Positions 7,408-34,614 of a DNA stretch of 64,000 nucleotides are shown piece by piece. Below the pieces are notes generated by a model, which was given only the letters and a program-made list of their open reading frames with translations, made no database searches and was not told where the DNA came from. The stretch comes from Escherichia phage UPEC01, in the sequence record MW233709; one strand, 5' to 3'. The translations under genes and the position numbers were made by a program. How positions within the stretch are numbered: the first letter of the stretch is position 1; every line of letters begins with the position of its first letter.

Positions 7408-7683
7408 ATGACTAAATTTGAAATCGTTTCTGAAATTGTTACTGTAACTTCAATTTTGATTAAAACCGACCGGGAAGATATTACGATGAAGCGTGATGTG
7501 TTTATCGCGTTTTTGAATGAGTTGGGATTGAGGAATGAGAATGGGAATGAGTTAAACAACGTATCGTTTAACAAGTTGTTTAAAAGTTTATCTGAAGATG
7601 AAATTGAACAAATCATTGAACAATTTAACGAAGGATTCGAAGATATACATCGTTATCTTATGATGTATACCTCCGGATTCTAA
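7408..7683 (+). CDS. asiA: anti-sigma70 factor AsiA
   Basis: 91 aa; VTS.ILIK..REDI, FIAFLNE.G, FNEGFE..RYL.MYT match T4 AsiA (90 aa). Confidence 0.85.
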   Translation: MTKFEIVSEIVTVTSILIKTDREDITMKRDVFIAFLNELGLRNENGNELNNVSFNKLFKSLSEDEIEQIIEQFNEGFEDIHRYLMMYTSGF

Positions 7684-8333
7684 CGTGTACGTCCGAGCGT
7701 ACGACCTGCTTGTCCACACATAGCAGAAAGCCTATCAAAACCAAGGTTAGGTTTTTGCTTATACCAGTACAGTGAGACTGTACCTGCATAAACGTTCTCT
7801 AGATTAAAGAATGGGCAGCTGAACATATATTCGAAGCTGCTTTTTTTCTTTGTTGGTAAGAATACAGATTCCGTACCGGATTCAAAATAATTACCATTAA
7901 CCCCTGCCAAATATTCCGCTGAAGTCTTATCTATTGGAAACCCACCCAAATTTTTCTCGTCGACTGATTCAGGTAATATCCCCTCGTACCCCACCATATC
8001 CACGAAGTAGTTAAGGTTAGTTGGTCTAAAAGAATATATCGCTGTAAAGTCAGCTCCGCTTGATGAGTGAACTATCTGGATTTGCTCGATAGCTGCAATT
8101 TTAAATCTGTTATCCTGGTCTTGCCTTATCATTTCTGTGTACGAGGCATATGAAGCATCCCTATACGCATCTAAAATTGCATCACCTTTATACCAGATTA
8201 CCGCCATTAAAAATAATAGAACAATAACTAGTACCCGGGAAAAGACAACTTTCCCGGTCGCATTATCTTTAAAAATTCTATCAAGAAGTCCAAAAAGTAG
8301 GTCGGGGATTGAGATTCCTACTTTTGGTTCCAT
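7680..8333 (-). CDS. t: holin T
   Basis: 217 aa; LDR.FKDNATGKV, LEQLQIVH.SS.ADF.A.YSFRP.NLNYFVD match T4 holin (218 aa); downstream of gene 38. Confidence 0.9.
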   Translation of the reverse strand: MEPKVGISIPDLLFGLLDRIFKDNATGKVVFSRVLVIVLLFLMAVIWYKGDAILDAYRDASYASYTEMIRQDQDNRFKIAAIEQIQIVHSSSGADFTAIYSFRPTNLNYFVDMVGYEGILPESVDEKNLGGFPIDKTSAEYLAGVNGNYFESGTESVFLPTKKKSSFEYMFSCPFFNLENVYAGTVSLYWYKQKPNLGFDRLSAMCGQAGRTLGRTR

Positions 8334-8351
8334 ACTTTTCTCCTTTAAAGA

Positions 8352-8359
8352 TATTTATA
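8352..8359 (-). promoter_or_regulatory. late promoter (TATAAATA) for holin t
   Basis: TATAAATA on - strand about 19 nt upstream of t start. Confidence 0.6.
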
Positions 8360-8370
8360 GCGCAAAAGTA

Positions 8371-9144
8371 TTATAGCCAGGAGCCATAGATAGTGCCTGT
8401 AGCACCCCATGTCGGTGAACTTCCGAATACTGCTCTACCAGGAGCACCACCCCCCGACCTGGATAAGTGATTGCCCCATCCGTCGCCACCAGCGCCACCT
8501 GCATCACCTCCATTACCACCGCCAAATTGACTTGTATTACCACCACCACCTGGGCCGTCATAACTAGCATTACCGCCAGGCCAATTAACGCCACCGCCGC
8601 CGAGACCAAATGGTCGACCGCCTCCCCCACCTGCGGTAGAATTTGCAGGCCAACTATTCTGTAATGATACGGCACCGCCGCCGCCACCACCAGAGGCTAT
8701 CACACCATAATTCCAAATGCGAAGTCGTCCACCAATATCATTTTGGATTACGTCGCCACCATTAGTGCCTGGGCTTCCATTTACGCTACCATTACCACCA
8801 CGGCCCCACATATGAACGCCACCATGAATATTCAAAGTAACATATTCGTTAGGGGTATCACCGTACATAAAGAACAACGGAACATCTTTAGTATATGATA
8901 CTAAGTTGCCTGTGATATTAAACACTATAGGAGCACCGCCGGCTTCAAAACAACGGTCACGGAACCATTGACCATTAAAGTTATGGTCAGCTCCAAGAGT
9001 GTGAATTACTTCAACAGAACGGCCGTTCATATTGCTCATCCAAAACGGAATGCTCATTCTTAATCGTTGGGCCGCTCCACCCATCCAATTTTGTCCTGTA
9101 TTAGCTACTGCAGACCCTCCAACCCACGGTCCTACTACTGCCAT
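8371..9144 (-). CDS. 38: long tail fibre adhesin gp38 (T2-type, glycine-rich motifs)
   Basis: Start at [10 protein letters not shown] after GGAGG RBS; conserved N-terminal region ([40 protein letters not shown]) and C-terminal poly-Gly blocks as in T2/T6-type gp38. Confidence 0.85.
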
Positions 9145-9175
9145 ATAAACCTCCAAGGGGCCGAAGCCCCTCTTA

Positions 9176-12100
9176 TTATTTCAACAATGATTTAACTAAT
9201 TTTTTAAGCTCTTCAATCTCTGATTTAAGTTCTGCAATTTCTGCAGTATGCTCGTTGATTGCAGCTGTATTTAAACCAATTACACCGTTATAGTTCAAAC
9301 GAAGTAAAGCTTCACCATCCAGGTCGCCTTCAACTAATTCTGGTAAAATAGCTTGAACTTCTTGAGCTATCAAACCAGCGTTAGGTTCCCATTTCTGATT
9401 ACCTTCTTCATCTGTTCCACGTTTCTGCATATAAGTGTAACCGTTAATTTTAGAAAGCTTCTCAGAAGCATTTTCAAATTTAACGAGGTTCTTTTTAACA
9501 CGAATATCAGAGCGGACATAAACATCACGGACATACGTTGAATAGCTGTCATTCGCCTGAACTAAATGACCATGAGAAACGATAGCTCTTCCGGTTTCTG
9601 TCCAAAAAGCACCAGTTGAATCCCAAAGTCCAGGATGAGATTGATAGCCTGCGCCCCAGCTTGCAATATGTATACTATTGGCAACCATGTTAATTCGACC
9701 ATCACCACCGTGTGATAAGCCTGTATCGTTGTCACCGATGGCGATACTCGGAGTGCCAAGTCCGTTAACAGTACCAACACCGATTGCAGGAGTTTGAATC
9801 AAAGTAGGGCTATAGAATAGTCCAGACGAATGGAATTCAAAAATACCTACAGGCCCATCGCCGCGCTCGGCATTACCTACTCGAATTATAGCTTGTCCCC
9901 AGGCTTGTGGTGTACGTCTAATACCAAGGTCAACAGAAGTAGTATATCCTTGACCAGTAATTACAGAACGGCCTTTAATAATAGGATAATAACTATCTTC
10001 GCCAACGCTACCAAAATCAAGGAAATAAGGTGCTTCTAAGCCCCATTGGTCGCCCCACGCACCAGATTTACGCGCAACCCAGTGAGCACCGTTCATATGA
10101 ATTCGGTCACGGTTTATATTGAATATACTAGTGCCCTGTGGAGATAGAATAACTTCACCGTTAGGGTTGATATTAATACCGCCTTGAGATTGGAAACTCC
10201 AGAAGGCAAGTCCGTTATCAGCACCGCCATTACCGACATACCAGTTATCAGCACCACCTTTTTTACCCTTAACATAGCCCGCTTCATCTGCTGGATAATC
10301 AATAACAACAGCATCCGAGTTGGTTTTAAGAGTTAAACGTCCGGTCATCGTGTCGCCTTCTTTTGAAACACGAGTAGCTATTGCATCGCGAATATTTGTA
10401 GTGTCTCCTGCTGAAGTGAACGTTTTCCAGATATCAGAGAAGATGTTACCATTTTTAGCAATAGTAGCTTCACCACCACCAACCTGAACATTATCGGGGA
10501 AGTTAACTGTACCATCAGCATTAAATCTTGAGGTATGGGCTTGTGTTCCATCTTCTTTAAGATGATGAATAACGAATGTACCTGAATTAATTTCAGTACC
10601 TAAAGACCAAACAGCTTTACCGTTTAAAAACTTCTGTTTGACAATCGGATAATATTTACTTACAGCGTCATCATCAATTTCTTGGAAAATAGGAGCAGCC
10701 TGGCCGTATTGAATATCATATCCACCTGCGCCTGCGCCGTGTCCACCAAATTTAATAAAACCATTTTCAGCAAAAGTTGTATGGCTCAAATCTAGGTCCG
10801 GAATAACCACCTTACCAGTATCTAAAGCCAAACTAAACGGGCGAAGTGGACCGATGTCCCCGGTTTTACCCTCACCAAAGGCTGTTGGAATAATATGAAG
10901 ACTTCCTTCTGAACGACGGAAAATAGCGGCGTAATCGTCGTTCCAAATTCTAAGAGCATTGACCGCATTACCAGCAATAGTGCCGGAGACGTTAACTTCC
11001 TGACCGACATTTATACTTTCGTTTACGCCCAAAGTTCCATTTAAATGGCTTTGAATAGAACCTGAAGTCAGACGTTGATAATATTGAATCCAGCTAGTGT
11101 CATCAGATATTTCCATTACGTTTTTACGGTCGCCATCAACATTAGCAAAGGTATTACCCCAAACGCTGATAGTCATATTATCAACTGAACTATTTCCTGT
11201 AGTATTTCCTTTGAACAACAGAGTAGATGCATTGTTGCGGCCGTCGATATTAACCGAACCGCCGATAACATTAATATCACCTGGAGTAACTAACAATCCG
11301 CCAGCGGTGTTAACGTTTGTAGTGCCTTTACCACGGAAATAGTGGTGGTAATTACCGCCTTGGTAATAACCCAAAAGAGTTTGACCATCACCGTATGCGT
11401 TATTATCATGGTAAGTAACTACAGTTGCCAGAGCATAGTTTTCAGCCGGAGGAGTAGTCAAATCAGTACCATTTACAGAATAACCCATAACCATTTTTCT
11501 AAGACTAGTAGTTTCCGCCGGACCGGAAAGGAAAGTTTTTGTACCGTTGTTTACCGTAAAAAAATATCCATCTTGATGCCATTTAAATCCGGTGTCATTA
11601 TCACCGAGGGCAATTGAAGCTGTTCCTAATTCAGAATATCCTTTGGGGCCGCCTGGGGTGCCTATAGAAATGGAATGGCCCGCTTTCAATCCACCAGACC
11701 ATGTAAACGACCATAGATAGGCCTCTAACCCGTCGCCAGCGTACCAAGTTATTCCATCATTATCTTTAACTTCATGGAAAATACCAGCTCCTACCGCATT
11801 GCGCATCGAACGAAGATGGTTAATTGCTGTTTCGCTTTCGGTTAAAGGAGTGTTGTCAGCCATTGAATAGATATCATAATCACCATCTTTCTTAGCATTG
11901 GTAATAACTTTATCAGTCATAACTGTCGGCGATGAAATAGATTTCCAAGCATTAACTATAGGAGAGGTCAAAATACCATCACCGGAGAAAGAATAGCTGT
12001 GCTCACCGCCTGCTGCGTAATCTTGTACTCGAATATTAACTACCTGGGTTGTCAAACCGGCATTATTTGGAGAAAAGATAATCCCACGTTCACGGTCATT

Positions 12101-12478
12101 GCCATCAAAGAAACGAAGGTGCGAAGTAGAAGCGCTCTTAGAAATCAGTTCGCCACCTTCAGTCATTATCTGACCTGCTGCAATAATATCACGAGTTACA
12201 CGAGCAATTCCAGTTAAATTAAAATTACCTGTCTGGGTAAATGTGCCATTGATGGTATAATCACCGGTTTGATTATAATTGCCTTTATGAATAACGTTAC
12301 CATCGATATTGCCACCCTTAGCAAAACCAAGGTCAATAATAGCTCCGGTATCATCCTTTGTGAATAACAAGCGGTCTTTCAAGTTAATTGCGAGTTCACC
12401 TTCAGCCAATACAGTTGGGGTTGGGCGGACACCAGCAATTTTACTTCTTTTAAATTGTATTTGTTTTAAAGTAGCCAT
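9176..12478 (-). CDS. 37: long tail fibre distal subunit gp37 with C-terminal intramolecular-chaperone-like domain
   Basis: 1100 aa; N-terminus [17 protein letters not shown] identical to T4 gp37; C-terminal ~110 aa (DIRVKKN...[14 protein letters not shown]...[15 protein letters not shown]...[11 protein letters not shown]) resembles S74-type chaperone domains. Confidence 0.9.
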
Positions 12479-12486
12479 AATGCCTC

Positions 12487-13134
12487 TTAATAATATCCAA
12501 AGTCTTGTACGGAGTCTTTAAGAACGATTTGGTCAAAACGAGGCACGTGAGCCGGGTCTGATGCAGGGTTCCTAGAGAAAAAATTGGGCGCTGACAAGTT
12601 TCCTGTCATTGATTGTAATGTACTATTATTTAGTTCCACCTGTTGCTGGTTAGTTACGTTTCCTAAACCAACTTGAGCTTTCGACGGAGTGTTCCCTGGA
12701 GAAAATACACGACCCGAATCATCATAAACTTGACGAGCCAGCGTATCACCCATAACCGTGAATCTTTTGGCTCCGGTTGTAGTATCAGGGTCAAAAATAA
12801 TAAATGGCGTGCCTGTTTCGGTTTCGAAACCAAACGGACCTTTTATACGGAATGAAGCCGTAAATGGTGCACCACCAGTTCTTGCTCCCAACTTAATCCC
12901 ATAACCATTTGTATCGTTAAAGGTCAGACCTTGTTCGAAATATACGTTTGCTTTATAATTACCACCAAGAGCCTTTGAAACGAAATCGTTATCTACTGCC
13001 TGCGGCTTATTATATTCGGAATAAATTTTATAAGTTTTGTAATATACATCATTACTAACTGGTGTTAAAGGGAAATTACCCTGATGCCAAAGGACTGAAC
13101 CTCCAGCGGTTGAACCTAATTTTAAATCAGCCAT
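12487..13134 (-). CDS. 36: long tail fibre hinge protein gp36
   Basis: 215 aa, between genes 35 and 37 (T4 gp36 221 aa). Confidence 0.8.
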   Translation of the reverse strand: MADLKLGSTAGGSVLWHQGNFPLTPVSNDVYYKTYKIYSEYNKPQAVDNDFVSKALGGNYKANVYFEQGLTFNDTNGYGIKLGARTGGAPFTASFRIKGPFGFETETGTPFIIFDPDTTTGAKRFTVMGDTLARQVYDDSGRVFSPGNTPSKAQVGLGNVTNQQQVELNNSTLQSMTGNLSAPNFFSRNPASDPAHVPRFDQIVLKDSVQDFGYY

Positions 13135-13180: not shown

Positions 13181-13203
13181 GAAAAAAGGACCCGAAGGTC
13201 CTT
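13181..13203 (-). terminator. intrinsic terminator after gene 35
   Basis: GGACC-TTCG-GGTCC hairpin followed by T-run on - strand. Confidence 0.65.
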
Positions 13204-14332
13204 ATTGTTTTTCTCGAAGTTCGGCTGCATAAATCTTGCCTGCACGTGGAGCTTGTGCATCCGGGAATGTTACAATTGTATTGCCTGTATTTGTTGCATC
13301 GTTTGCATATGACATCCTTATGCCGTTGACACCAAATTCAGCTGGTTTGAACGCTGAGTCACCTCTGGTTATCTCACCAATAACAATATTACGTATTGAC
13401 CCTGTTCCAGTAGCTACAGTTCTTGATGTTACTACCGTAAAGCCATCAGCTCCTGCTGGAATCTCGACATATCTTTCAAAACTCGCCCATGCACCAGCTG
13501 GAACGTTTGTTGCAATATCGATGTTTGTATTTGATATAGGAGAAGTGCTAGGGCTTTTAAAGAATCGAACCGAAGTCCTTACAGTCCCGGCGGCTTTCAG
13601 AGCAGCATCAAATGACATCTGAAACTTCAGATAAAGCATATCCAAAGGCAAAAGGTTATAGCCAGTCATAGGAGTCACCAGGTCCTCTGTGGGGAACCTT
13701 TTAATTGTGGTTGGTGTTCCATCACCTGTTGATGAATACGTGCTCTCGTCTTCCGTTATGCGCACAGGATAGCCTGTTGCTCCTATATCACTAAAGGTAT
13801 CATAAACAACTTCGAGCGGTGTTGAAACATCTTCAACCAACTTCCCGTCATTATACTTAACGTGCTCCGAAACAATTACGTTCCTGCCAGTTATGTAAAA
13901 AGCCGAGTATGATGTGTCAACTTTATCAATCAACCATTTCTCGGGGAATGCTTTTGACCCCTTTAATCGCATCCAGTCAATTAATGTCTGTGAAGCGTTT
14001 AGTTTCCCAGAAGAAATAAAAGCAATCAATCTTCCGGCTGGAACAGATTCCACAAAGGTAATTAATGCCTGACTGATTGCATCATGTGTGCTAGTTAATG
14101 AATAGTTTTTCGTGTTAACAATTTTATTCGTAGTTGTATCAATTTCCAATAGAGTCAGACCATTACCAAAAGTAGTTGGTCCAATTCGTTCATCCTGAAA
14201 TTTGATATACGATTTCACCGTGGAAAGAGTACAGCTCCCTGCTATACTCATTTTAAATTTAACGGCATTATTTTCTGATATAACTGGCGTTTGGACGTAT
14301 CCTTGTCCAAACTCTGCCATAAATTTTTCCAT
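13202..14332 (-). CDS. 35: long tail fibre hinge connector gp35
   Basis: 376 aa, between genes 34 and 36 (T4 gp35 372 aa). Confidence 0.8.
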   Translation of the reverse strand: MEKFMAEFGQGYVQTPVISENNAVKFKMSIAGSCTLSTVKSYIKFQDERIGPTTFGNGLTLLEIDTTTNKIVNTKNYSLTSTHDAISQALITFVESVPAGRLIAFISSGKLNASQTLIDWMRLKGSKAFPEKWLIDKVDTSYSAFYITGRNVIVSEHVKYNDGKLVEDVSTPLEVVYDTFSDIGATGYPVRITEDESTYSSTGDGTPTTIKRFPTEDLVTPMTGYNLLPLDMLYLKFQMSFDAALKAAGTVRTSVRFFKSPSTSPISNTNIDIATNVPAGAWASFERYVEIPAGADGFTVVTSRTVATGTGSIRNIVIGEITRGDSAFKPAEFGVNGIRMSYANDATNTGNTIVTFPDAQAPRAGKIYAAELREKQ

Positions 14333-19890: not shown

Positions 19891-20555
19891 TTACGATTCG
19901 CATGCCTCCAAATAACAACCGATATATAAATGGTAAATCAGTATACCAACTGTACTTATCCATCAAACAGCATTTTTCGGGTCGTTATGATATTATCAAA
20001 TATAACTGGACCATGCGAATCTCCGATAGTGCTTATCAAAAACGTCGCGATAAGTATTTTTTCGAAAAGCTTAGCGATAAGTACACTCTCAAAGAATTAA
20101 CGTTAATATTCATGTCAAACCTGGTTGCGAACCAGGATGCATGGATAGGCGATATAAGTGATGCCGATGCTCTGATATTTTATAGAGAATACATTGGTAG
20201 ACTTAAAAGAATTAGACAAGTATACGAAGATGATATAAAGAACATCTATTACTTCAGTAAGAAAGTCGAAGTCAAATCGCTCCAAGAGATTTTCGAGTAT
20301 AATACTAAAGTGAACACAAGTTATATTTTCAAACTTCTCCAATCGAATGTTATCTCATTTGAAACGTTTTGTTTGCTTGATTCATTTTTAGGTATTATAA
20401 ATAAACATGATGAACAGACTAACGACTTGGTTTGGGAAAAGTATTCAACCAAACTAAATGCCTATAAGAAAATCTTAAATATAGATTCTCTTGAAGCTCG
20501 TAAATTGTTCATCGAGACCGTTAAAAACTGTCAAATAACGCTTCAATCACTTTGA
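19887..20555 (+). CDS. 59: helicase loader gp59
   Basis: 222 aa; near-identity blocks to T4 gp59 (YI.GKSVY.LYL.IKQH, KRRDKYFF.KLS.KY.LKEL, NLVANQDAWIGDISDADAL.FYREYIGRLK, SYIFKLLQSN.ISFETF). Confidence 0.9.
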   Translation: MITIRMPPNNNRYINGKSVYQLYLSIKQHFSGRYDIIKYNWTMRISDSAYQKRRDKYFFEKLSDKYTLKELTLIFMSNLVANQDAWIGDISDADALIFYREYIGRLKRIRQVYEDDIKNIYYFSKKVEVKSLQEIFEYNTKVNTSYIFKLLQSNVISFETFCLLDSFLGIINKHDEQTNDLVWEKYSTKLNAYKKILNIDSLEARKLFIETVKNCQITLQSL

Positions 20556-20615
20556 AGTATAATTAATACGTAATCAAAACAACTGCTAAAAATCAAATAA
20601 TCTAAGGAAAATCAT

Positions 20616-21527
20616 ATGTCTATGTTTAAACGTAAAAACCCTGCTGACCTGGCTGCTTCCCTTAACGCTCTGAAAGGTGGTGCTGGTTTCTCTTCTGACG
20701 ATAAAAAAGAATGGAAACTGAAAGATACTGATGGTGTCGGCTCTGCGGTTATTCGTTTCCTGCCTTCTAAGAATGAAGAAAATCCATCTCCGTTCATCAA
20801 GCTCGTTAACCACGGCTTTAAAAACGCGGGTCAATGGTATATTGAAAACTGTACTTCTACTCACGGTGATTATGAAAACTGTCCTGTGTGTGCGTACATG
20901 AATAAGAATGACCTGTACAATACAAACGAATCCGAATATCGTAAACTGAAGCGTAATACTTCTTACTGGGCTAACATCCTGGTCATTAAAGACCCTGCTG
21001 TTCCGTCTAATGAAGGTCAAGTATTCAAATACCGCTTCGGCAAGAAAATCATGGACAAAATCAACCAGATGGTTGAAGTCGATGTTGACATGGGTGAAAC
21101 TGCTATCGATGTAACTTGTCCGTTTGAAGGTGCGAACTTCGTACTGAAATCTAAAATGGTTTCCGGTTATAAAAACTACGATGATTCCAAATTCATGAAC
21201 CAGTCTGAAATCGCTGGTATCAATGATGAAGCATTCCAGAAAAAACTTTGGGACGAAATGTCTGACCTGAATGAATTGCTGGTATTTAAATCTCTTGAAG
21301 AGAATCAGAAGAAATTCTCTAAAGTAATGGGTACGGCTGCTCTCGGTGGTGCTGCTTCTAAAGCTGCTGCGCAAGCCGATAAACTGGGCGCTGACCTGGA
21401 CGATTTTGATAAAGATATGGAAGACTTCACTTCCAGCAAACCTGCTAAGTCTGAACGCACTGCGACTGCTCCAAGCACTCCAGAGCCTTCTGATGATGGT
21501 CTTGACGACCTTCTGGCTGGCCTTTAA
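20616..21527 (+). CDS. 32: ssDNA-binding protein gp32
   Basis: 303 aa; [43 protein letters not shown], acidic C-terminus; matches T4 gp32. Confidence 0.95.
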
Positions 21528-21532
21528 TATAA

Positions 21533-21557
21533 GGGGACCTTCGGGTCCCTTTTTTAT
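21533..21557 (+). terminator. intrinsic terminator after gene 32
   Basis: GGGACC-TTCG-GGTCCC hairpin plus TTTTTTATTTT. Confidence 0.75.
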
Positions 21558-21569
21558 TTTCAAAAAGTA

Positions 21570-21599
21570 GTGTACAAGTCCCTTGAGCTAAGGCATAAT
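21570..21599 (+). promoter_or_regulatory. early promoter cassette
   Basis: AAAAAGTAGTGTACA ... CATAAT right after gene 32 terminator. Confidence 0.6.
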
Positions 21600-21637
21600 G
21601 ATTCCATCAACTACTGATAACAACTGAGGAAATAAAA

Positions 21638-22000
21638 ATGGAAATCGGCAAAAAATATGAGTTCAATCCACATCGTATTAAATCTTTCATTGATATTAGT
21701 TCATCGAATGCTAGTATGGTTGACATCATCCAAGAAAATGGCGGTTGGTTTGAAGTTAAATCAATATCAAGTGCAGACGGCTATGATTATGTAACCGAAA
21801 TCATTTGTGCTAATGGTGCAATCTATAATGATGATGGCATGGGTGATGATTATTTTGAACTTAGTGAAGAAGAGTTTTATTGCTTCCGTGAATACTCTAG
21901 TTATACAAAAACACCTTCAGGGGCGGTTTCTATTAATTGTGTTGTAGATGTTAATAACGTCGACCAAATCATTGAACTTCTACAAAAAGCTTTCAAATAG
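21638..22000 (+). CDS. hypothetical protein (120 aa), paralog of 22350-22718
   Basis: ORF after early promoter; shares GK.Y.F..., DYFEL.E.EF motifs with 22350 ORF. Confidence 0.5.
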   Translation: MEIGKKYEFNPHRIKSFIDISSSNASMVDIIQENGGWFEVKSISSADGYDYVTEIICANGAIYNDDGMGDDYFELSEEEFYCFREYSSYTKTPSGAVSINCVVDVNNVDQIIELLQKAFK

Positions 22001-22002
22001 CA

Positions 22003-22033
22003 GTTTACAACGGGTCTATGATTATGTTATTAT
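22003..22033 (+). promoter_or_regulatory. early promoter cassette
   Basis: GTTTACA ... TATTAT with inverted repeat GGTCTAT/ATAGACC. Confidence 0.5.
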
Positions 22034-22062
22034 AGACCTATCAACTACATGAGGAAAATAAA

Positions 22063-22290
22063 ATGGCTAAGGTTAATATTGATATCGTTGATTTTGAATA
22101 CACTTACGAAGTTATTCGTAATCGGTATCCTTCTTTGTGTATGACTTACATTAAAGATACTGAAGTCTTTGGTATTCAAATTGAAGTCCAAGGTCCTCTT
22201 GAAGATATTACCCGCTTTATGCAAAATGAATATTGTGACGGTATGTACCCAGAAGACGCTGAATTTTATATGGGTTTGATTCAAGCTTAG
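22063..22290 (+). CDS. hypothetical protein (75 aa)
   Basis: ORF after early promoter 22003-22033. Confidence 0.45.
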
Positions 22291-22319
22291 TATACAAACC
22301 AACTGGAACATGATAATAT
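22290..22319 (+). promoter_or_regulatory. early promoter cassette
   Basis: GTATACA ... GATAATAT inside inverted repeat GGAACAT/ATGTTCC. Confidence 0.5.
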
Positions 22320-22349
22320 GTTCCCTCAATTGAATATGAGGAAATTAAA

Positions 22350-22718
22350 ATGATGGAAACTGGTAAATTTTACGTATTAGACCCTGCTGCCAAAAAACAA
22401 TTCATCGCTGGTAGTCCTGATGACAATTCGCGTATGATTAAGTTGATGGAACAACATGGTAGTTCCTTCAAAGTCCTGGACATGTGCTTTATTGATGGCG
22501 ATTATTTTGTTGAAAAAGTTGAAATGAAAGATGGCACCATCCTGGATAGTATGGATGGTGCTGATGAGTACTTTGAACTCGCTGAATGGGAATTCCGTCA
22601 CTTCATAGAAGTAGATGGTGATGCTCCTGATGTTGATACCCAAACCATTCATGTGCAAGTCAATCACAAAAATGCAGCAGAAGTCATTGCACTGATTAAA
22701 GCAACTTTTGGGGTCTAA
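22350..22718 (+). CDS. hypothetical protein (122 aa), paralog of 21638-22000
   Basis: ORF after early promoter; N-terminal GKFY...KKQFIAG motif also present in 34673 ORF. Confidence 0.5.
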   Translation: MMETGKFYVLDPAAKKQFIAGSPDDNSRMIKLMEQHGSSFKVLDMCFIDGDYFVEKVEMKDGTILDSMDGADEYFELAEWEFRHFIEVDGDAPDVDTQTIHVQVNHKNAAEVIALIKATFGV

Positions 22719-22719
22719 C

Positions 22720-22974
22720 ATGACTAAAGATGATTTCCTGGATGCAGTAGAAAAAGCAAGCGAACAGTTTGAAGTAATGGGTGTACGAGTTCATAAAGAC
22801 AGAAATTATGGTCTGGATGTTCAAACATACTCATTATGGCTTGTTGGTGAGCACAGTCTTGCAACCAATCTGGTGATGGGTATGGATGTTCATCCTTTAT
22901 TAGTTAAGTTCAGAAGTATGGAAAAAGCCACCAAGGAAATGATTAAACTTGGCAAATGGCTTGATAAAATTTAA
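22720..22974 (+). CDS. hypothetical protein (84 aa)
   Basis: ATG at 22720; track start 22708 is TTG. Confidence 0.45.
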   Translation: MTKDDFLDAVEKASEQFEVMGVRVHKDRNYGLDVQTYSLWLVGEHSLATNLVMGMDVHPLLVKFRSMEKATKEMIKLGKWLDKI

Positions 22975-22980
22975 AAAGTA

Positions 22981-23010
22981 GTGTACAACCAAATGGGGCT
23001 ATGACATAAT
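22981..23010 (+). promoter_or_regulatory. early promoter cassette
   Basis: AAAAAGTAGTGTACA ... CATAAT; conserved block variant 23013-23030. Confidence 0.6.
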
Positions 23011-23051
23011 GGTCCCATACTGAGTTAACAACTAAAACCCTGGAGAATAAA

Positions 23052-23291
23052 ATGAAATTACAACGTGAGAGCATCAAAGATTCAGAAGTTAAAGGCAAAT
23101 GGTACTTCACAATCCAGGGTAACAATCCAGAAGCTCTGGAAAAAGCTGAAGAAACTTTATGCGCGATGGGTTGGAAAGATGAGTGCGATGGTTGCCCTCT
23201 TTATGAAGATGGTAGCTCATCTGGTTTCTGGATTCACCACTCTGACGTTGACCAATTTAAAGCTGACTGGAAAGTTGCTAAGAAAGCGTGA
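23052..23291 (+). CDS. hypothetical protein (79 aa)
   Basis: ORF with GGAGAATAAAATG RBS after early promoter 22981-23010. Confidence 0.5.
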   Translation: MKLQRESIKDSEVKGKWYFTIQGNNPEALEKAEETLCAMGWKDECDGCPLYEDGSSSGFWIHHSDVDQFKADWKVAKKA

Positions 23292-23301
23292 GGAAAATAT
23301 A

Positions 23302-25077
<1,776 letters not shown>

Positions 25078-25078
<1 letters not shown>

Positions 25079-25275
25079 TGAATATTCGTATAGTAAACAA
25101 TAGATACGGCACCAATGAGGTGCTGTTTGAAAAAATGAACATAAGTCTCGATGAACTGCCTAAAGAGAAAACAACGATTTTTGTCCAGGGTAAAGAACTT
25201 TATGTTATGCGTGTTATTAAATCGTATGAATATGATGATTTCAATCGGTCTATCTGGTTTATTGTCGAGGTATAA
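25078..25275 (+). CDS. hypothetical protein (65 aa)
   Basis: TAATG-coupled ORF after td. Confidence 0.4.
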
Positions 25276-25336
25276 TGAAAATTCAAATTGCCGGTATTTT
25301 ATTTCTGGCCGTAATGGTCGGGCTTAACTTCCTACT

Positions 25337-25636
25337 ATGAAAGCCTGTCGGGTTGTTAACAAATATCAATCCGACTTTGATGTGAATATTCAACGGGGTA
25401 CCATGTGGGGAAATCCATATAAAGATGGTACCCGAGAAGAAAACATAAAGAACTTTAAAGAATATTTCATAGCAAAGATTAAATCGGGTGAAATCAAAAG
25501 AGAACATCTTGAAACTCTCCGCGGAATGCGATTAGCCTGCACATGCAAACCGAAGTCATGTCATGGCGACGTTATCGCTCTGGTCGTTAACAAACTTTTC
25601 AAAGACACCTTTTCGCTCGAGGATTTGGGTACATAA
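25337..25636 (+). CDS. hypothetical Cys/His-motif protein (99 aa)
   Basis: WGNPY and CTCKPKSCHGD motifs; family assignment not certain. Confidence 0.45.
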   Translation: MKACRVVNKYQSDFDVNIQRGTMWGNPYKDGTREENIKNFKEYFIAKIKSGEIKREHLETLRGMRLACTCKPKSCHGDVIALVVNKLFKDTFSLEDLGT

Positions 25637-25645
25637 ATACGATTC

Positions 25646-25669
25646 CGCTTCAGGGCACTGTGATATAAT
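25646..25669 (+). promoter_or_regulatory. middle promoter candidate
   Basis: CGCTTCA box, 13 bp, TATAAT. Confidence 0.4.
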
Positions 25670-25695
25670 TATTTAAAATTTAATGAGAGGAAATT

Positions 25696-25941
25696 ATGAA
25701 TTTACGATTTAAACGCCAGTCAGGCGAAGTCATTTTTGAAATGCCACAATTTACCGAACAGGATTTACCTGCACCAAATTCTTATATCACTATTGACGGA
25801 ATCAAATTTCTGGCCAAACGACATGAACGTGTCTACTGTCATGATTCAGCCGGTGATGTCCAGTCATATTTTGACATCACTGTCCAGTCAGAAGAAGAAT
25901 ATAATGATGAAATGACTTCGGAACTACCAGAGACAATTTAA
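25696..25941 (+). CDS. hypothetical protein (81 aa)
   Basis: ORF with GAGAGGAAATT RBS downstream of promoter 25646-25669. Confidence 0.45.
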   Translation: MNLRFKRQSGEVIFEMPQFTEQDLPAPNSYITIDGIKFLAKRHERVYCHDSAGDVQSYFDITVQSEEEYNDEMTSELPETI

Positions 25942-25974
25942 GGTTCCCAACCCTTTTGAACTATAGAGGAAAAC

Positions 25975-28230
25975 ATGCAAGTACAAAAAAGTAGTGGTGT
26001 ATCCCAAGATTTTGATGGCCAGAAAATTATTAAAGTTCTTTCTTGGTCATGTGAAGGAACCAATATCGACCCATACGAATTATACGAAACAATCAAACCA
26101 CATCTGCGCGATGGCATGACTACTCGCGATATTCAGACGGTTATCATCAAAGTGTCTGCTGGGCTTATCTCGGTTGAAGAACCAGATTACCAATATGTTG
26201 CAGCCAAAGCTACGATGTTTGCTCTGCGTAAAGATGTTTACGGACAATTTGAGCCGCGTTCTTTTATTGACCAGATTTCTTATTGTGTTAATGAAGGCAA
26301 ATACGACCCGGAGCTGTTGTCAAGCTACTCCGCCGAAGAGATTACTTATCTGGAATCTCGTATCAAACACGAACGTGATTTTGACTTGACTTATGCAGGC
26401 GCGATGCAGCTTAAAGAAAAATACCTGGTTAAAGATAAAACCACTGGGAAAATCTACGAGACTCCGCAATTCGCTATCATGGCTATCGGCATGGCACTGC
26501 ACCAGGATGAACCAACGGACCGCCTGAAGCACGTTTGCCGTTTTTATGATGCAGTATCCACCCGACAGGTTTCGTTGCCCACACCTATCATGGCGGGCGC
26601 CAGAACACCTACCAGGCAGTTCAGTTCATGTGTGGTTATCGAAGCGGCTGACTCCCTGAAGTCAATTAATAAGACTGCTAATTCAATCATCGAATATATC
26701 AGTAAGCGTGCAGGTATCGGTATCAACGTTGGCATGATTCGTGCTGAAGGTTCGAAAATCGGTATGGGCGAAGTCAAGCATACTGGTGTTATTCCGTTCT
26801 GGAAACATTTCCAAACGGCTGTTAAATCATGTTCACAAGGTGGAATCCGTGGCGGCGCTGCTACTGCTTATTATCCTATTTGGCATTTGGAAGTTGAAAA
26901 TTTACTCGTTCTGAAGAACAACAAGGGCGTTGAAGAAAACCGCATCAGACATATGGACTATGGTGTCCAGCTGAATAACCTGATGATGGAACGACTGGCT
27001 AAGAATGATTACATCACTCTGTTTAGTCCACACGAAGCTGGCGGTGAATTGTATTATTCATATTTTGATAACCCGGATAAATTCCGCGAGTTATATGAAG
27101 CCTTAGAAAAAGACCCGACAGTTCGCAAGAAACGTATCAAAGCAAAAGATGTATTTGAATTATTCATGACCGAACGTTCCGGTACGGCCAGGGTTTATCC
27201 GCAGTTCGTCGATAACGTGAATGACTACACTCCGTTCATCCGTGACAAGGCTCCGATTCGTCAATCAAACCTTTGCTGCGAAATTGCAATCCCGACTACT
27301 GATGTGAACAGCGAAGACGCTGAAATCGGATTGTGCACATTGTCCGCATTTGTTCTGGATAGTTTTGACTGGCAGGACCAAGATAAGATTAATGAACTGG
27401 CCGAAGTTCAAGTTCGGGCTCTTGACAACCTGTTGGACTATCAGGGTTATCCGGTTAAAGAAGCTCTGAAAGCCAAAAAACGCCGCAACCTGGGTGTTGG
27501 GGTTACTAACTATGCTGCATGGTTGGCAAGCAATTTCGCTTCCTACGCTGATGCAAACGATTTAACGCATGAACTGTTTGAGAGATTACAATATGGCCTT
27601 ATCCGTGCATCAATCAAGCTCGCCAAAGAAAAAGGACCTTGCGAATATTATTCAGACACTCGTTGGGCTCGAGGCGAATTACCTATCGACTGGTACAATA
27701 AAAAGATTGACCAAATCGCAGCTCCAAACTACGTTTGTGACTGGGCGCAGTTGCGGGAAGACCTGGTTGAACATGGCATCCGTAATAGCACATTATCAGC
27801 ACTTATGCCTTGTGAGTCATCTTCCCAAGTTTCTAACAGTACAAACGGTATCGAACCTCCGCGTGGACCAGTCTCTATTAAAGAGTCAAAAGAGGGTTCC
27901 TTTAATCAAGTCGTGCCCAATATTGAGCACAATAAAGGATTGTACGATTACGCATGGGTGCTAGCTAAGCAAGGTAACAAACCTTATCTGACACAAGTCG
28001 CGATTATGCTGAAATGGGTATGTCAATCAGCTTCAGCGAATACATATTATGACCCGCAGAATTATCCGAAAGGAAAAGTTCCGATGTCTGTTATGCTTGA
28101 CGACCTGATGTACTTCTGGTATTTTGGTGGAAAAAACCTTTATTATCATAACACTCGAGATGGTTCCGGAACAGACGATTACGAAATCGAAGCTCCTAAA
28201 GCAGAAGACTGCTCCGCCTGTAAACTTTGA
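25975..28230 (+). CDS. nrdA: ribonucleotide reductase class Ia large subunit NrdA
   Basis: 751 aa; ATP-cone N-terminus, catalytic NLCCEI, C-terminal redox Cys pair; T4 NrdA 754 aa. Confidence 0.95.
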   Translation: MQVQKSSGVSQDFDGQKIIKVLSWSCEGTNIDPYELYETIKPHLRDGMTTRDIQTVIIKVSAGLISVEEPDYQYVAAKATMFALRKDVYGQFEPRSFIDQISYCVNEGKYDPELLSSYSAEEITYLESRIKHERDFDLTYAGAMQLKEKYLVKDKTTGKIYETPQFAIMAIGMALHQDEPTDRLKHVCRFYDAVSTRQVSLPTPIMAGARTPTRQFSSCVVIEAADSLKSINKTANSIIEYISKRAGIGINVGMIRAEGSKIGMGEVKHTGVIPFWKHFQTAVKSCSQGGIRGGAATAYYPIWHLEVENLLVLKNNKGVEENRIRHMDYGVQLNNLMMERLAKNDYITLFSPHEAGGELYYSYFDNPDKFRELYEALEKDPTVRKKRIKAKDVFELFMTERSGTARVYPQFVDNVNDYTPFIRDKAPIRQSNLCCEIAIPTTDVNSEDAEIGLCTLSAFVLDSFDWQDQDKINELAEVQVRALDNLLDYQGYPVKEALKAKKRRNLGVGVTNYAAWLASNFASYADANDLTHELFERLQYGLIRASIKLAKEKGPCEYYSDTRWARGELPIDWYNKKIDQIAAPNYVCDWAQLREDLVEHGIRNSTLSALMPCESSSQVSNSTNGIEPPRGPVSIKESKEGSFNQVVPNIEHNKGLYDYAWVLAKQGNKPYLTQVAIMLKWVCQSASANTYYDPQNYPKGKVPMSVMLDDLMYFWYFGGKNLYYHNTRDGSGTDDYEIEAPKAEDCSACKL

Positions 28231-28268
28231 TATAATTATGCTCATGGATGAGCTATTGAGGAAATAAA

Positions 28269-29447
28269 ATGAGTACAGTTTTTAATACCACTCCAGTGGA
28301 TGTTTTAGCCGAGCCGATGTTCTTCGGTTCTGGATTGGGGATTGCACGTTATGATATCCAGCGCCATAAAGTTTTCGAAGAATTAACAGAAAAGCAATTA
28401 TCATTCTTCTGGCGACCTGAGGAAGTCAACCTGATGATGGATGGAGCTCAATTTAATAAGCTTCCTGAACATCAACAAAATATTTTTACCAACAACCTGA
28501 AATACCAATCACTTCTGGATAGTATCCAGGGTCGTGCTCCAGCTGCAGCATTAGCCGCATTAGTTTCTGACCCGAGTCTTGATACATGGATTCAGACCTG
28601 GACATTCAGCGAGACAATTCACTCTCGTTCTTATACGCACATCATGCGAAATCTCTATACGGACCCGGCGAAGGTATTCGACGAAATCCTGTTAGATGAT
28701 GCAATCATGAAGCGCGCAGAATCCATTGGTCATTACTATGATGATGTTCTGAATAAAACTCGTCAATGGCAAAACCAGATTGCTTTTGTTGAACTGGCCA
28801 AAGAAACTCCCGAAGCGGACGAACGTTTGGAACGAGCTATCAAACAAGAAGCTATCGCCAAACGAGCATTGATGAAGTCTCTTTATCTCTGCCTGCATGT
28901 TATTAACGCCCTGGAAGCTATTCGTTTTTATGTATCTTTTGCATGTACTTTCAACTTCCATAAGAACATGGAAATCATGGAAGGTAATGCGAAGATAATG
29001 AAGTTCATCGCCCGTGATGAACAGCTCCACCTTAAGGGGACCCAATATATTCTTCGTCAGCTGCAAACTGGTGTTGACGGTGACGAATGGGTTAAAATCG
29101 CACACGAATGTGAAGCAGAAGCCGCAGCCATTTTCATGGAAGTTAATCGCCAGGAAAAAGAATGGGCCGTGCATCTGTTTAAAGATGGTGGGCTCCCTGG
29201 GTTGAGCGTCGAGATTCTTAACCGGTTCATCGATTACCTGACGGTTTCTCGTATGAAGCAATGTGGTCTCCCTTGTGAAATCGTGTTAGAATCTACTAAG
29301 CACCCGATTCCATGGATTCGCGAATATCTTAACTCTGATAATGTGCAATCTGCACCACAAGAAGTTGAGTTGTCTGCTTACCTGGTAGCCCAGATTGACA
29401 ATGACGTCGATGAGAATGTTCTTGCTGGTTTCCGTAAATATCTATAA
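28269..29447 (+). CDS. nrdB: ribonucleotide reductase small subunit NrdB (uninterrupted)
   Basis: 392 aa continuous ORF with di-iron/tyrosyl radical motifs (ETIHSRSY, ARDEQLH); no intron unlike T4. Confidence 0.95.
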   Translation: MSTVFNTTPVDVLAEPMFFGSGLGIARYDIQRHKVFEELTEKQLSFFWRPEEVNLMMDGAQFNKLPEHQQNIFTNNLKYQSLLDSIQGRAPAAALAALVSDPSLDTWIQTWTFSETIHSRSYTHIMRNLYTDPAKVFDEILLDDAIMKRAESIGHYYDDVLNKTRQWQNQIAFVELAKETPEADERLERAIKQEAIAKRALMKSLYLCLHVINALEAIRFYVSFACTFNFHKNMEIMEGNAKIMKFIARDEQLHLKGTQYILRQLQTGVDGDEWVKIAHECEAEAAAIFMEVNRQEKEWAVHLFKDGGLPGLSVEILNRFIDYLTVSRMKQCGLPCEIVLESTKHPIPWIREYLNSDNVQSAPQEVELSAYLVAQIDNDVDENVLAGFRKYL

Positions 29448-29449
29448 GG

Positions 29450-29470
29450 AAAGGGCTTCGGCCCTTTTTG
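29450..29470 (+). terminator. intrinsic terminator after nrdB
   Basis: AAGGGC-TTCG-GCCCTT plus T-run. Confidence 0.65.
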
Positions 29471-29473
29471 CCC

Positions 29474-29884
29474 ATGAAACAAATCGCTGATGAATACAGT
29501 TTTATAAAATACGCGGAGTTAGAGTTAGTCGATGGTAAAATCCCTATTCTTACTCTCGCGAACAAGAAAAATGTTATCTATGCTATTTCAGTTGATGATG
29601 AACTAGTGTATATTGGTAAGACGAACAACCTTAAGAAGCGTATCAACTATTACCGGACTGCGATTAACCGAATCGACCAGACGAGCGATTCAAACAAATC
29701 CCGGATGATACATGAAGCTTTACAAGAAGGTAAAAAGGTGGTATTCTATGCACGACAATGTTTCAATCTGTCAATGACCAATGAACTTGGCACAATGTCA
29801 GTCGAAACGATGTCTCTGGAAGAGCCGATGTTCATCAAGCTTTTTAATCCCCCGTGGAATTACCAACATAAGGTGAAGAAATGA
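29474..29884 (+). CDS. denA: endonuclease II (GIY-YIG family) DenA
   Basis: 136 aa from ATG 29474; VYIGKT.NL.KRINYYRTAINR and C-terminal KLFNPPWN match T4 DenA. Confidence 0.8.
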   Translation: MKQIADEYSFIKYAELELVDGKIPILTLANKKNVIYAISVDDELVYIGKTNNLKKRINYYRTAINRIDQTSDSNKSRMIHEALQEGKKVVFYARQCFNLSMTNELGTMSVETMSLEEPMFIKLFNPPWNYQHKVKK

Positions 29885-31017
29885 TTGAATTATATGATAA
29901 CTTAATGAAGCTTTGCGCCGAATCCGATAAAGGTAAGTTTTTCTATACGGATTTTGTTTCTCCATTTGAAACTAAGTTCCGCATCTTTAGCTATAACTAT
30001 GCTTCCTATAGTGATTGGCTTCTTGATGATGCGCTGGAGTGTCGTGGCATTATGTTTGAAATGGATGACAATGGTCCAGTTCGCATTGCCGCCCGTCCTA
30101 TGGAAAAATTCTTTAATCTGGGTGAGAATCCAATGACCATGGACCTTAACCTTGATGAGGTTGTCCTGGTTACTGCAAAAGCTGATGGTAGCTTGGTTTC
30201 TACTTATATGGACCAGACTAATATCGCCTTTAAATCCAAAGGGTCAATCAAAAGCTCCCAAGCTGCTGAATCCTTGCAGGTGTTTAAACAAGAGCATCGC
30301 AGTGCATTCAGGGCTCGCGTAACTGAAATCACTGAAGCTGGTTATACATGCAATATGGAATATGTTGCACCAACCAACCGCATTGTTTTGCCTTACCAGG
30401 AACGTGACCTGATTTTACTGAACGTTCGCCATAATGAAACTGGTGAATATATTCCTTATCAGGAACTGTTCAAAGATGCTGCGCTCCGTCCTTTCCTGGT
30501 TGAAGCATATGACCCGGCGAGCATTGAGAATGTTCGTGGTATGAAAGAGATTGAAGGCTTCGTCTATGAGCTGGCAAGTGGTCAGAAGTTCAAGATGAAA
30601 ACAGAATGGTATTGTGCTCTGCATCATACTAAAGACTCCATTAATAATAATGAGCGACTGTTTGAAGTTGTTGTTGCTGGCGGGGCAGATGATGTTATTG
30701 CCATGTTTACTGGCGATACTTATGCTCGCGAAAAAGTTAATGCCTTTACTGTAACGCATCTGGATTATCTGTCCAATACATTGGGATTGTTGCTTGATGC
30801 TCAGAAACAACTGGCAGGAAAAGACCGACGCGAGTTTGCGATTAAAGGTCAAGAGTTGTGCAAACCATACCCGGGATTGTTCTCCGTATTAATGAACACC
30901 TATCAACGCCCACAGGAAACTGAACAAACGATTGCTCAAATCAATAAAGTTTTCCTTAAAAATCATAAACTTTACATTCCGTCGGACTACCAAGCGGAAG
31001 TAATCCTTCCTGAATAA
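29881..31017 (+). CDS. rnlA: RNA ligase 1 (RnlA, gp63)
   Basis: 378 aa; RIFSYNYASYSDWLL.DALECRGIMFEMD, KADGSLVSTY (KxDG), IVL.YQE match T4 RnlA. Confidence 0.9.
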   Translation: MIELYDNLMKLCAESDKGKFFYTDFVSPFETKFRIFSYNYASYSDWLLDDALECRGIMFEMDDNGPVRIAARPMEKFFNLGENPMTMDLNLDEVVLVTAKADGSLVSTYMDQTNIAFKSKGSIKSSQAAESLQVFKQEHRSAFRARVTEITEAGYTCNMEYVAPTNRIVLPYQERDLILLNVRHNETGEYIPYQELFKDAALRPFLVEAYDPASIENVRGMKEIEGFVYELASGQKFKMKTEWYCALHHTKDSINNNERLFEVVVAGGADDVIAMFTGDTYAREKVNAFTVTHLDYLSNTLGLLLDAQKQLAGKDRREFAIKGQELCKPYPGLFSVLMNTYQRPQETEQTIAQINKVFLKNHKLYIPSDYQAEVILPE

Positions 31018-31027
31018 TAAAAAAGGG

Positions 31028-31057
31028 GTGTACAAGCCCCTCCTTTCTATACATAAT
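31028..31057 (+). promoter_or_regulatory. early promoter cassette
   Basis: GGTGTACA ... CATAAT; leader TCCATCAACTACTGA. Confidence 0.55.
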
Positions 31058-31088
31058 GGTTCCATCAACTACTGATGAGGACTAAAAC

Positions 31089-31322
31089 ATGTTAAACTTA
31101 ATTACAAATGAAAGAGTTACACAGGCATATGGTGACAGTAATGACGGAATCTATGTCTACAAGGGAGACCGCCGGATTGGTTTCATTACTGACCTGAAGG
31201 CCAAATTGTTAAAAGAACTGAAAGCTCAAACAGGTGATTCTGGGTTTAGAGCAAGAGCCAAAAAGAAAGATGAACGCCTGGGTGCCAACTCTTTTGGTCC
31301 CCGGGGTTACAACCGCTACTAA
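31089..31322 (+). CDS. hypothetical protein (77 aa), N-terminal paralog of following alc-like ORF
   Basis: Shares YGD..DGIYVYKG...IG..TDL.AKL with 31336 ORF. Confidence 0.45.
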   Translation: MLNLITNERVTQAYGDSNDGIYVYKGDRRIGFITDLKAKLLKELKAQTGDSGFRARAKKKDERLGANSFGPRGYNRY

Positions 31323-31335
31323 TGAGGAAAATATT

Positions 31336-31839
31336 ATGGATATGCAACTGATTTCAAATGAAATGATTGTCAATGAATATGGTGACCGTCATGACGGAAT
31401 TTATGTCTATAAAGGGACCAAGAAAATTGGTCTCATGACTGACTTGCGGAAAAAACTCGCCTCCGATAAAAAGTTGAAGGCGAAACAAAAAGAATATCGT
31501 GATAAAAAATCAGAAGAGCGGAAAGAAGCACTGCATGAATCTGTTCCTGAAATGGTTGACTTCTTAAAGAACCATTTGGTTAAATATGATGCAGAAGTGT
31601 TCATCAATCAGACCCAACCTAATGTGCATATCAATGGATGTGTTTGTTATGTTGTGGTTGAACCCCTGACACTTCAACACCGTCTGGGAATTAAACACCC
31701 AGTGTTGACCCAGGATGATATGGCGGATGAAGTTGGTAATCAGTTCCGCATTTCAGCATCTGACAGTACAAATCACATCCTCCTGAATGGTTTATCCCAG
31801 GATGATATTGTTGAGGTAATCATCAAGTTATGCAAATAA
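31336..31839 (+). CDS. alc: Alc-like protein (167 aa)
   Basis: Exactly 167 aa and between rnlA and pseT.3 as T4 alc; no sequence-level recall. Confidence 0.45.
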   Translation: MDMQLISNEMIVNEYGDRHDGIYVYKGTKKIGLMTDLRKKLASDKKLKAKQKEYRDKKSEERKEALHESVPEMVDFLKNHLVKYDAEVFINQTQPNVHINGCVCYVVVEPLTLQHRLGIKHPVLTQDDMADEVGNQFRISASDSTNHILLNGLSQDDIVEVIIKLCK

Positions 31840-32183
31840 GTAATCTCACTGCAGGGCTTATGCTCGCCCTGGTAGTAACTGCTGGTAGTGGTTTCTATCT
31901 AAAAGCAAAAGTGGATAATCTCAAGACAGCGGTGGCGGAAGTCACCAAAGTCGCAGAAGATAATGCGAAAAATCTACAATCAGTAAAAGACCAGGTTAAT
32001 CAAATTAATCTCCTTGACCAACAGCGCCAGGAATATGTTGAACACCTGCAGAAGGAAAATGATAAACTTCGCGCAGATGCAAAACGTACTAAGGTTGTGG
32101 CAGCGAAGCCTAAATTAGTTGAAAAACAGATTAATCAGTCTTTTGATAAGTTCGCCCAGGACTTCCAGGAGCTCACCAAATGA
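31830..32183 (+). CDS. i-spanin (PseT.3-like)
   Basis: N-terminal TM helix then long coiled-coil; ATGA-coupled to downstream lipoprotein; T4 pseT.3 position. Confidence 0.6.
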   Translation: MQISNLTAGLMLALVVTAGSGFYLKAKVDNLKTAVAEVTKVAEDNAKNLQSVKDQVNQINLLDQQRQEYVEHLQKENDKLRADAKRTKVVAAKPKLVEKQINQSFDKFAQDFQELTK

Positions 32184-32470
32184 TGAAATCTATCATGGCA
32201 GTATGTTTGGCTATTGGACTCGTTTCATGTGCCCAGAAGCCCGTTGTGGAGCCCACAATCCAAGTTCATCCTAATTGGCCTGTTGCATTGGCTGATTACA
32301 AACAGCAATGGGAAGTTAAGGTAATTGAGGGTCAAGCCTGGGTTGGCATGCCTTTTGAAGCATCGCAAGAATTCAGGATTTGGATGAATGATGTAAAAAG
32401 GTATGTACATGACCAAAAAGGTATGTTATGTTATTATCGTTCTGAACTAAAAGAGGAACGTTGCAAATGA
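32180..32470 (+). CDS. o-spanin lipoprotein (PseT.2-like)
   Basis: Signal peptide with lipobox LVSC, short periplasmic protein with conserved Cys; T4 pseT.2 position. Confidence 0.6.
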   Translation: MMKSIMAVCLAIGLVSCAQKPVVEPTIQVHPNWPVALADYKQQWEVKVIEGQAWVGMPFEASQEFRIWMNDVKRYVHDQKGMLCYYRSELKEERCK

Positions 32471-32570
32471 TAGAGTGTAGCCTTGGTTGGGATATTGTTA
32501 GATTTGGTGCATTCTGTTTTTGTTTTGGAATTGCGGCCACTTTATGTGTTCAAGGTCTTTTTGGAAAGTA

Positions 32571-32598
32571 GTGTACAAACTCTTGGGAGCATTATACT
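32571..32598 (+). promoter_or_regulatory. early promoter cassette
   Basis: GTGTACA ... TATACT in loop of inverted repeat GGGAGC/GCTCCC. Confidence 0.5.
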
Positions 32599-32634
32599 CT
32601 GCTCCCACGGATTATAAAATTTGAGGAAATTATT

Positions 32635-33856
<1,222 letters not shown>

Positions 33857-33857
<1 letters not shown>

Positions 33858-34262: not shown

Positions 34263-34287
34263 CGCTTTAAAAATTTTATGTTATAAT
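34263..34287 (+). promoter_or_regulatory. middle promoter candidate with conserved leader
   Basis: CGCTTTA box, 14 bp, TATAAT followed by GGGGTCTAGGTCC...GGATAC. Confidence 0.5.
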
Positions 34288-34333
34288 GGGGTCTAGGTCC
34301 TTTGGATACCCCAATAACTAAGCGAGAAAAGAA

Positions 34334-34612: not shown

Positions 34613-34614
34613 GT

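Follow-up and report, generated by a model that had tools for sequence, protein, structure and literature searches.

Results

Organisation of the distal tail-fibre locus

The window, by which we mean the whole stretch of DNA analysed here (64,000 nucleotides of Escherichia phage UPEC01, record MW233709), carries its long-tail-fibre genes in the order 34-35-36-37-38-t, a canonical block that lies entirely on the minus strand. Gene 37 (9176..12478, minus strand) encodes the precursor of the distal long-tail-fibre subunit, which has 1100 amino acids plus stop. Gene 38 (8371..9144, minus strand) encodes the gp38 adhesin of 257 amino acids, counted from the ATG at 9144, and the holin gene t (7680..8333, minus strand; Pfam Phage_holin_T, 5.2e-66) closes the conserved 37-38-t block. 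No tRNA genes were found in the 64-kb window with ARAGORN, and no Rfam family reached its gathering score across the same 64 kb. The gp35-like hinge protein (13205-14332, minus strand) gave a sub-threshold Pfam match to ILEI (interleukin-like EMT inducer; 26.2 bits compared to a cut-off of 27, residues 57-127).

Over its whole length, gp37 shares 88.7% identity with its counterpart from Escherichia phage WG01. When T4 gp37 was compared by BLASTP, it aligned over residues 1-639 of the window protein (E=1e-91), and the homology ends near residue 640. The last 114 residues of gp37 are the translation of 9520..9179 (minus strand), with the stop codon at 9178..9176. The C-terminal peptide quoted in an earlier sequence-only reading of this DNA was found where that reading had placed it, at the end of the 1100-residue minus-strand reading frame 12478..9176. 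Two other reading frames overlap this end of the gene, one of 62 amino acids on the plus strand (9353..9541) and one of 60 amino acids in an alternative frame of the minus strand (9552..9370). Both lie entirely inside the strongly conserved gp37 coding frame and were rejected for lack of support.

The gap between genes 37 and 38 measures 31 nt. In the mechanical list of open reading frames, gp38 starts at TTG 9156 (MEVYMAVV...). The codon actually used is almost certainly ATG 9144 (MAVVGPW...), because it is preceded by GGAGG-N6 and the N-termini of the gp38 proteins of RB27, T2 and S16 match it. The stop of gene 37 and the ribosome-binding site of gene 38 are separated by a GC hairpin with a UUCG loop (GGGGCUUCGGCCCC; 9156..9171, minus strand), and the folding stability of its 71-nt context is unremarkable (z=-1.0). 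We considered this hairpin as a terminator and rejected it: the coding strand continues with the ribosome-binding site and the ATG, and there is no U-run. A second GC-rich hairpin with a CUUCGG/UUCG tetraloop (AAGGACCUUCGGGUCCUU, then a U-run) is located between genes 35 and 36 at 13186-13203 (minus strand). Extra-stable tetraloop hairpins are known from T4 intercistronic regions.

gp37 ends in a Peptidase S74 domain

The sequence-only reading had proposed that the last ~110 residues of gp37 resemble the intramolecular chaperones of the Peptidase S74 type, and had suggested a profile search with the C-terminal residues. When the last 114 residues were searched in this way, PF13884 (Peptidase_S74, 'Chaperone of endosialidase') was detected with E=1.3e-14 and 54.7 bits, compared to a curated gathering cut-off of 22 bits, so that the outcome of no detectable similarity did not occur. 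With the whole gp37 as query, the same profile scored 49 bits. The matched core comprises residues 990-1049 (9332..9511, minus strand) and corresponds to profile positions 1-57 of 58. Since the domain proper begins at Ser990, it extends over 111 residues to the end of the protein, in good agreement with the length given in the sequence-only reading. Thus, the S74 domain (9179..9511, minus strand) occupies the extreme C-terminus of gp37, residues 990-1100 of 1100, and its release after trimer folding is predicted.

Among PDB sequences, the best match was 6F45_A, the distal fragment of gp37 from Salmonella phage S16 (E=1.3e-34). The alignment runs to the very last residue and places SDIRVKK of the window protein opposite SDRRIKK. 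Weaker matches were obtained to the ICA domain of MyRF (7DC3) and to the tail fibre in 8JOV. A profile built from homologues recovered the same structures (6F45, 1.8e-38; 8JOV, 2.8e-15; MyRF 7DC3, 1.2e-11) and the neck-appendage chaperone of GA-1 (3GUD, 8e-4). From 221 candidates in a large protein database, 22 matches were retained, a set that is sufficient for a test of conservation and is no census of the family; all but one of these 22 carry the PF13884 annotation. In the phage collection, tblastn detected the domain in 1163 records, and 141 of these, including RB27, AR1 and the LF82 series, encode it with at least 95% protein identity.

We considered whether the resemblance could be due to chance or composition, for example to a coiled-coil tail, so that the segment would simply be the structural end of the fibre. 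Indeed, the last ~35 residues are helical, heptad-like and of low complexity; they were masked by BLAST, and the tblastn alignments end at query residue 92. However, the Pfam and PDB matches sit in the non-helical core (990-1049), which includes the catalytic motif, and the Pfam score exceeds the curated cut-off by 32 bits. The predicted fold, described below, also agrees with solved chaperone domains. Taken together, the Pfam, PDB, conservation, profile and fold evidence rules out a coiled-coil artefact, and a chance resemblance has next to no probability. The resemblance to S74 chaperone domains is much stronger than chance would produce.

The Ser-Lys dyad and the predicted cleavage site

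The domain opens with the motif S990-D-I-R-V-K995. In an alignment of 19 diverse homologues, with identities down to 24%, Ser990, Asp991 and Lys995 are invariant; the other invariant columns are the Gly in INGYTY, the G-x-IAQE motif and a few more. Ser990 (codon 9509..9511, minus strand) is the predicted catalytic and scissile serine, and Lys995 (codon 9494..9496, minus strand), at Ser+5, is the predicted general base of a Ser-Lys dyad. The counterparts of the motif are SDRRIK in S16, SDERLK in 8JOV and ADLRAK in the MyRF crystal construct. Thus, the sequence-only assignment of an S74-type domain held at the level of Pfam, PDB-sequence and fold matches as well as in the conserved dyad.

Autocatalytic release of such a domain is known for S16, T5 and K1F (PMC7917993, PMC4690869). 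According to PMC7917993, which cites Dunne et al. 2018, S16 gp37 autocleaves its last 113 residues between the serines of DLNVS^SDRRIKK and thereby exposes the docking surface for gp38. For the fPS phages, the equivalent site is predicted at DVYIR^SDGRLK (PMC7917993). In T5 pb1, the Thr1263-Ser1264 bond is cut, Lys1269 activates the serine, and cleavage is blocked by the S1264A exchange (PMC4690869). An Arg from the neighbouring chain makes correct folding of the trimer a precondition for cleavage of pb1 (PMC4690869).

Ser990 of the window protein aligns with the S16 site and with T5 Ser1264, and Lys995 corresponds to T5 Lys1269. By homology, cleavage should occur at DVYVR989^S990, so that mature gp37 would have 989 residues and the released fragment 111. 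Ser990 would leave with the chaperone, because the scissile bond is expected on the N-terminal side of the catalytic serine. The residues in front of the predicted cut, DVYVR (985-989; 9512..9526, minus strand), are matched in position by DVYIR in the fPS phages, NVYIR in T2 and DLNVS in S16; by homology, they would form the final strand of mature gp37 and contribute to the surface on which gp38 docks. For the upstream 'folding-sensor' Arg/Asp pair of K1F and T5, no counterpart could be assigned in the window gp37.

One could argue that a separate protease of phage or host origin, and not the domain's own dyad, removes the C-terminal segment. Processing of T2 gp37 was established by Drexler et al. 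1986, as cited in PMC3157838, and this work is not known to have identified the protease. On the other hand, a single Ser-to-Ala exchange abolishes cleavage of T5 pb1 in E. coli, where no phage factor is needed (PMC4690869), and the residues conserved in the autocleaving S16 protein (PMC7917993) are conserved in the window gp37 as well. We therefore regard a separate protease as extremely unlikely, and self-cleavage through Ser990 and Lys995 as the reading to be followed.

The predicted fold is that of an intramolecular chaperone

The last 204 residues of gp37 were modelled as a monomer with AlphaFold. The chaperone part was predicted with pLDDT values of 84-97 and consists of two beta-hairpins, short helices and a terminal helix of 37 residues, that is, a mixed alpha/beta part followed by a long helix. 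This helix comprises residues ~1063-1099 (9182..9292, minus strand; helix 167-203 of the model) and has a pLDDT >90. It is expected to form a trimeric coiled coil like the central one of the T5 and K1F chaperones (PMC4690869). gp37 itself is trimeric (PMC6851490, PMC3157838). The fibre part of the model is unreliable (pLDDT <50), as expected for a single chain taken from an interdigitated trimer.

When the model was compared with the PDB using Foldseek, MyRF 7DC3 was found with E=8.8e-6, a probability of 1.00 and a TM score on the target of 0.59-0.62, and the K1F endosialidase chaperone 3GW6 with a probability of 0.95-0.98. These intramolecular chaperones were the only meaningful matches, and all others had E >1. 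The closest solved relative, 6F45, was absent from the Foldseek results against the PDB, perhaps because its deposited coordinates lack the cleaved chaperone, and its chaperone domain was thus not available for a comparison of structures.

T4 gp37 lacks the domain and T2 gp37 has it

The gp37 proteins of T4 (NC_000866) and T2 (AP018813) served as controls. In T4 gp37, no match to Peptidase_S74 was found even at E<=1, and no SDxRxK motif; the protein has Collar and Phage_fiber repeats, and T4 gp38 gave a weak match to Caudo_TAP only. Conversely, no Collar or Phage_fiber domains were found in the window gp37 by the Pfam scan. T2 gp37 contains PF13884 at residues 1243-1300 of 1341 (E=3.3e-15), with the site NVYIR^SDIRLK located 99 residues from its end.

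The sequence-only reading had claimed that T4 gp37 lacks this domain and depends on gp38 and gp57. The first part is borne out by the control search and by the end of the T4 homology at about residue 640; the second agrees with PMC3157838, according to which T4 uses gp38 and gp57 as chaperones. As reported in PMC3157838, citing Drexler et al. 1986, the gp37 proteins of T2 and T6 are cleaved at the C-terminus and then capped by gp38. The contrast drawn between T4 and T2 is therefore correct, as both controls and the literature agree.

gp38 and the tip of the fibre

The complete gp38 gene follows directly downstream. Its product matches Pfam GP38 (7.3e-82) and Gp38_N (3.9e-20). It aligned end to end with S16 gp38 (6F45_D; E=1.6e-51 over residues 1-257) and also matched gp38 of PP01 (9V85; E=2.2e-75). 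The N-terminal attachment domain contains Trp7, Trp20 and Trp35, and the protein has long glycine-rich runs. The authors of the S16 structure described how pockets in the base of the gp37 trimer receive three such tryptophans (PMC6851490). We rejected a T4-type tip, in which gp37 is the adhesin and gp38 a chaperone related to lambda Tfa, since the window gp37 has the S74 domain and gp38 is the adhesin. The assignment to a T2-type tip capped by the gp38 adhesin, made in the sequence-only reading, is thus well founded: the full gp38 gene lies downstream, its product matches the S16 and PP01 adhesins, and T2 gp37 shares the Pfam domain.

It could also be that the S74-like domain assists trimer folding but stays on the mature fibre, and that gp38 binds elsewhere or to the chaperone itself. 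Processing of the window gp37 is predicted from its relatives, and mutation of the serine can leave an uncleaved S74 domain that is stable, as seen for T5 S1264A (PMC4690869). However, the window gp37 retains the Ser-Lys dyad and the Asp next to it, all of them invariant among the homologues. Furthermore, PMC7917993 describes the docking surface of S16 as uncovered only after cleavage, T2/T6 gp37 is known to be cleaved (PMC3157838), and the window tip and the gp38 N-terminus are close homologues of their S16 and T2/T6 counterparts. Hence, we consider retention of the domain highly unlikely. Very probably, residues 990-1100 are a self-cleaving Peptidase S74 chaperone, the release of which exposes the end of gp37 for gp38.

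Subtype and mosaicism of the tip

To classify the tip, we compared its parts with those of T2 and of RB27, whose adhesin is T6-like (PMC3157838). In the chaperone domain, identity is 96.4% to RB27 and 31.9% to T2. For the 100 residues before the predicted cut, the identities are 60% and 23%, respectively. gp38 shares 82% identity with RB27 gp38 over the first 142 amino acids (the N-terminal half) and 48% with T2 gp38. From the chaperone and gp38 identities, we conclude that the architecture is of the T2 type, but the sequence subtype that of T6/RB27 rather than of T2 proper. The difference between 96.4% and 60% identity to RB27 indicates strong constraint on the very part that is predicted to be released. 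The jump in identity falls at R989/S990 (window position 9512), which suggests a boundary of recombination or selection that coincides with the predicted cleavage site.

At the DNA level, the backbone of the genome is 95-97% identical to the Gaprivervirus phages (Tevenvirinae) vB_EcoM_RZ, VR20 and TH44, and no record of the phage collection exceeds 82-86% identity to the gene 37-38 region. The closest protein relatives of this region come from different phages, namely WG01, the LF82 series and RB27. Judged by these sequence comparisons, the fibre locus (8300-12500) is mosaic relative to the backbone (20000-40000), as is usual for T-even fibre genes.

Within the backbone, positions 20000-40000 of the window aligned to a 22.2-kb stretch of vB_EcoM_RZ, the closest relative, in six pieces, and vB_EcoM_RZ has annotated homing endonuclease genes beside gene 32 and between nrdA and nrdB. 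Therefore, homing-endonuclease insertions may differ between the two phages.

Two further ideas about the tip were considered. The released chaperone might have a second role, for example in timing or licensing the loading of gp38, or as a soluble factor within infected cells. Alternatively, the scissile bond might be a recombination joint through which a cassette of 'chaperone + gp38 attachment domain' moved from Tequatrovirus to Gaprivervirus. Taken together, these ideas are a long shot.

Discussion

Our results place a Peptidase S74 domain with an intact Ser-Lys dyad at the end of gp37, directly upstream of a complete adhesin gene. From the homologous systems, we infer the following course of tip assembly. 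Three nascent gp37 chains would associate via the chaperone domain, with the terminal helices forming a trimeric coiled coil. The chaperone trimer would then set the register and act as a nucleus for the folding of the trimeric, beta-structured tip that precedes it in the fibre. After this tip has folded correctly, Lys995 would activate Ser990 for attack on the Arg989-Ser990 bond in each chain, and the trimer of 111-residue chaperones would be released. This release would expose the blunt end of gp37, which in its mature form comprises residues 1-989 and stops at ...DVYVR. A single gp38 could then plug this end with its N-terminal three-helix attachment domain via Trp7, Trp20 and Trp35, and the docked gp38 would provide receptor recognition.

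The closest structurally characterized counterpart is the tip of S16 (PDB 6F45; Dunne et al. 2018). In both phages, gp37 ends in an SDxRxK-containing S74 domain of ~111-113 amino acids, and the gene that follows codes for a gp38 adhesin that has polyglycine motifs and, in its N-terminal part, three tryptophans. The sequences have clearly diverged, however: the residues before the cut are DVYVR here and DLNVS in S16, and the upstream shaft is different and longer (the window gp37 has 1100 amino acids in total). Like the Tequatrovirus tips of the T6/RB27/AR1 type, the tip described here has the identical SDIRVK motif and the same domain length (111 amino acids in RB27), but the genome backbone is Gaprivervirus-like and not that of a Tequatrovirus, and the 100 residues before the cut are only 60% identical to RB27. 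With T2 it shares the C-terminal Peptidase_S74 domain, the type of site (NVYIR^SDIRLK in T2) and the downstream gp38 adhesin gene. It differs from T2 in the distance from the serine to the end, which is 111 amino acids here and 99 in T2, and in a chaperone identity of just 32%. T4, with its gp38/gp57A chaperones, is homologous over the 640 N-terminal residues of gp37 and has its fibre genes in the same order, 34-35-36-37-38-t, but T4 gp38 is an unrelated assembly factor.

Beyond the T-even-type phages, the K1F endosialidase (3GW6), T5 pb1 (PMC4690869), the appendages of GA-1/phi29 (3GUD) and the ICA domain of the eukaryotic MyRF (7DC3) belong to the same Pfam family. With the window domain they share the Ser-Lys(+5) dyad, the predicted fold and the terminal coiled-coil helix. 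In K1F, T5 and GA-1/phi29, receptor binding or enzymatic activity resides in the mature end itself, and in MyRF the mature end is a fragment of a transcription factor. In contrast, the uncovered end of gp37 would here serve as a socket for a separate adhesin.

This feature is already known: it is a standard Peptidase S74 chaperone within a gp37-gp38 tip of the T2/T6/S16 type. This combination of domain, motif and gene order has been documented in T2, T6 and S16 as well as in hundreds of sequenced T-even-type phages, and the present case adds no new biology. Its value lies in annotation. The mature end of gp37 is predicted at Arg989, and gp38, not gp37, is identified as the receptor-binding protein. 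The prediction and engineering of host range depend on these assignments, because any swap has to leave the end of gp37 matched to the N-terminal domain of gp38.
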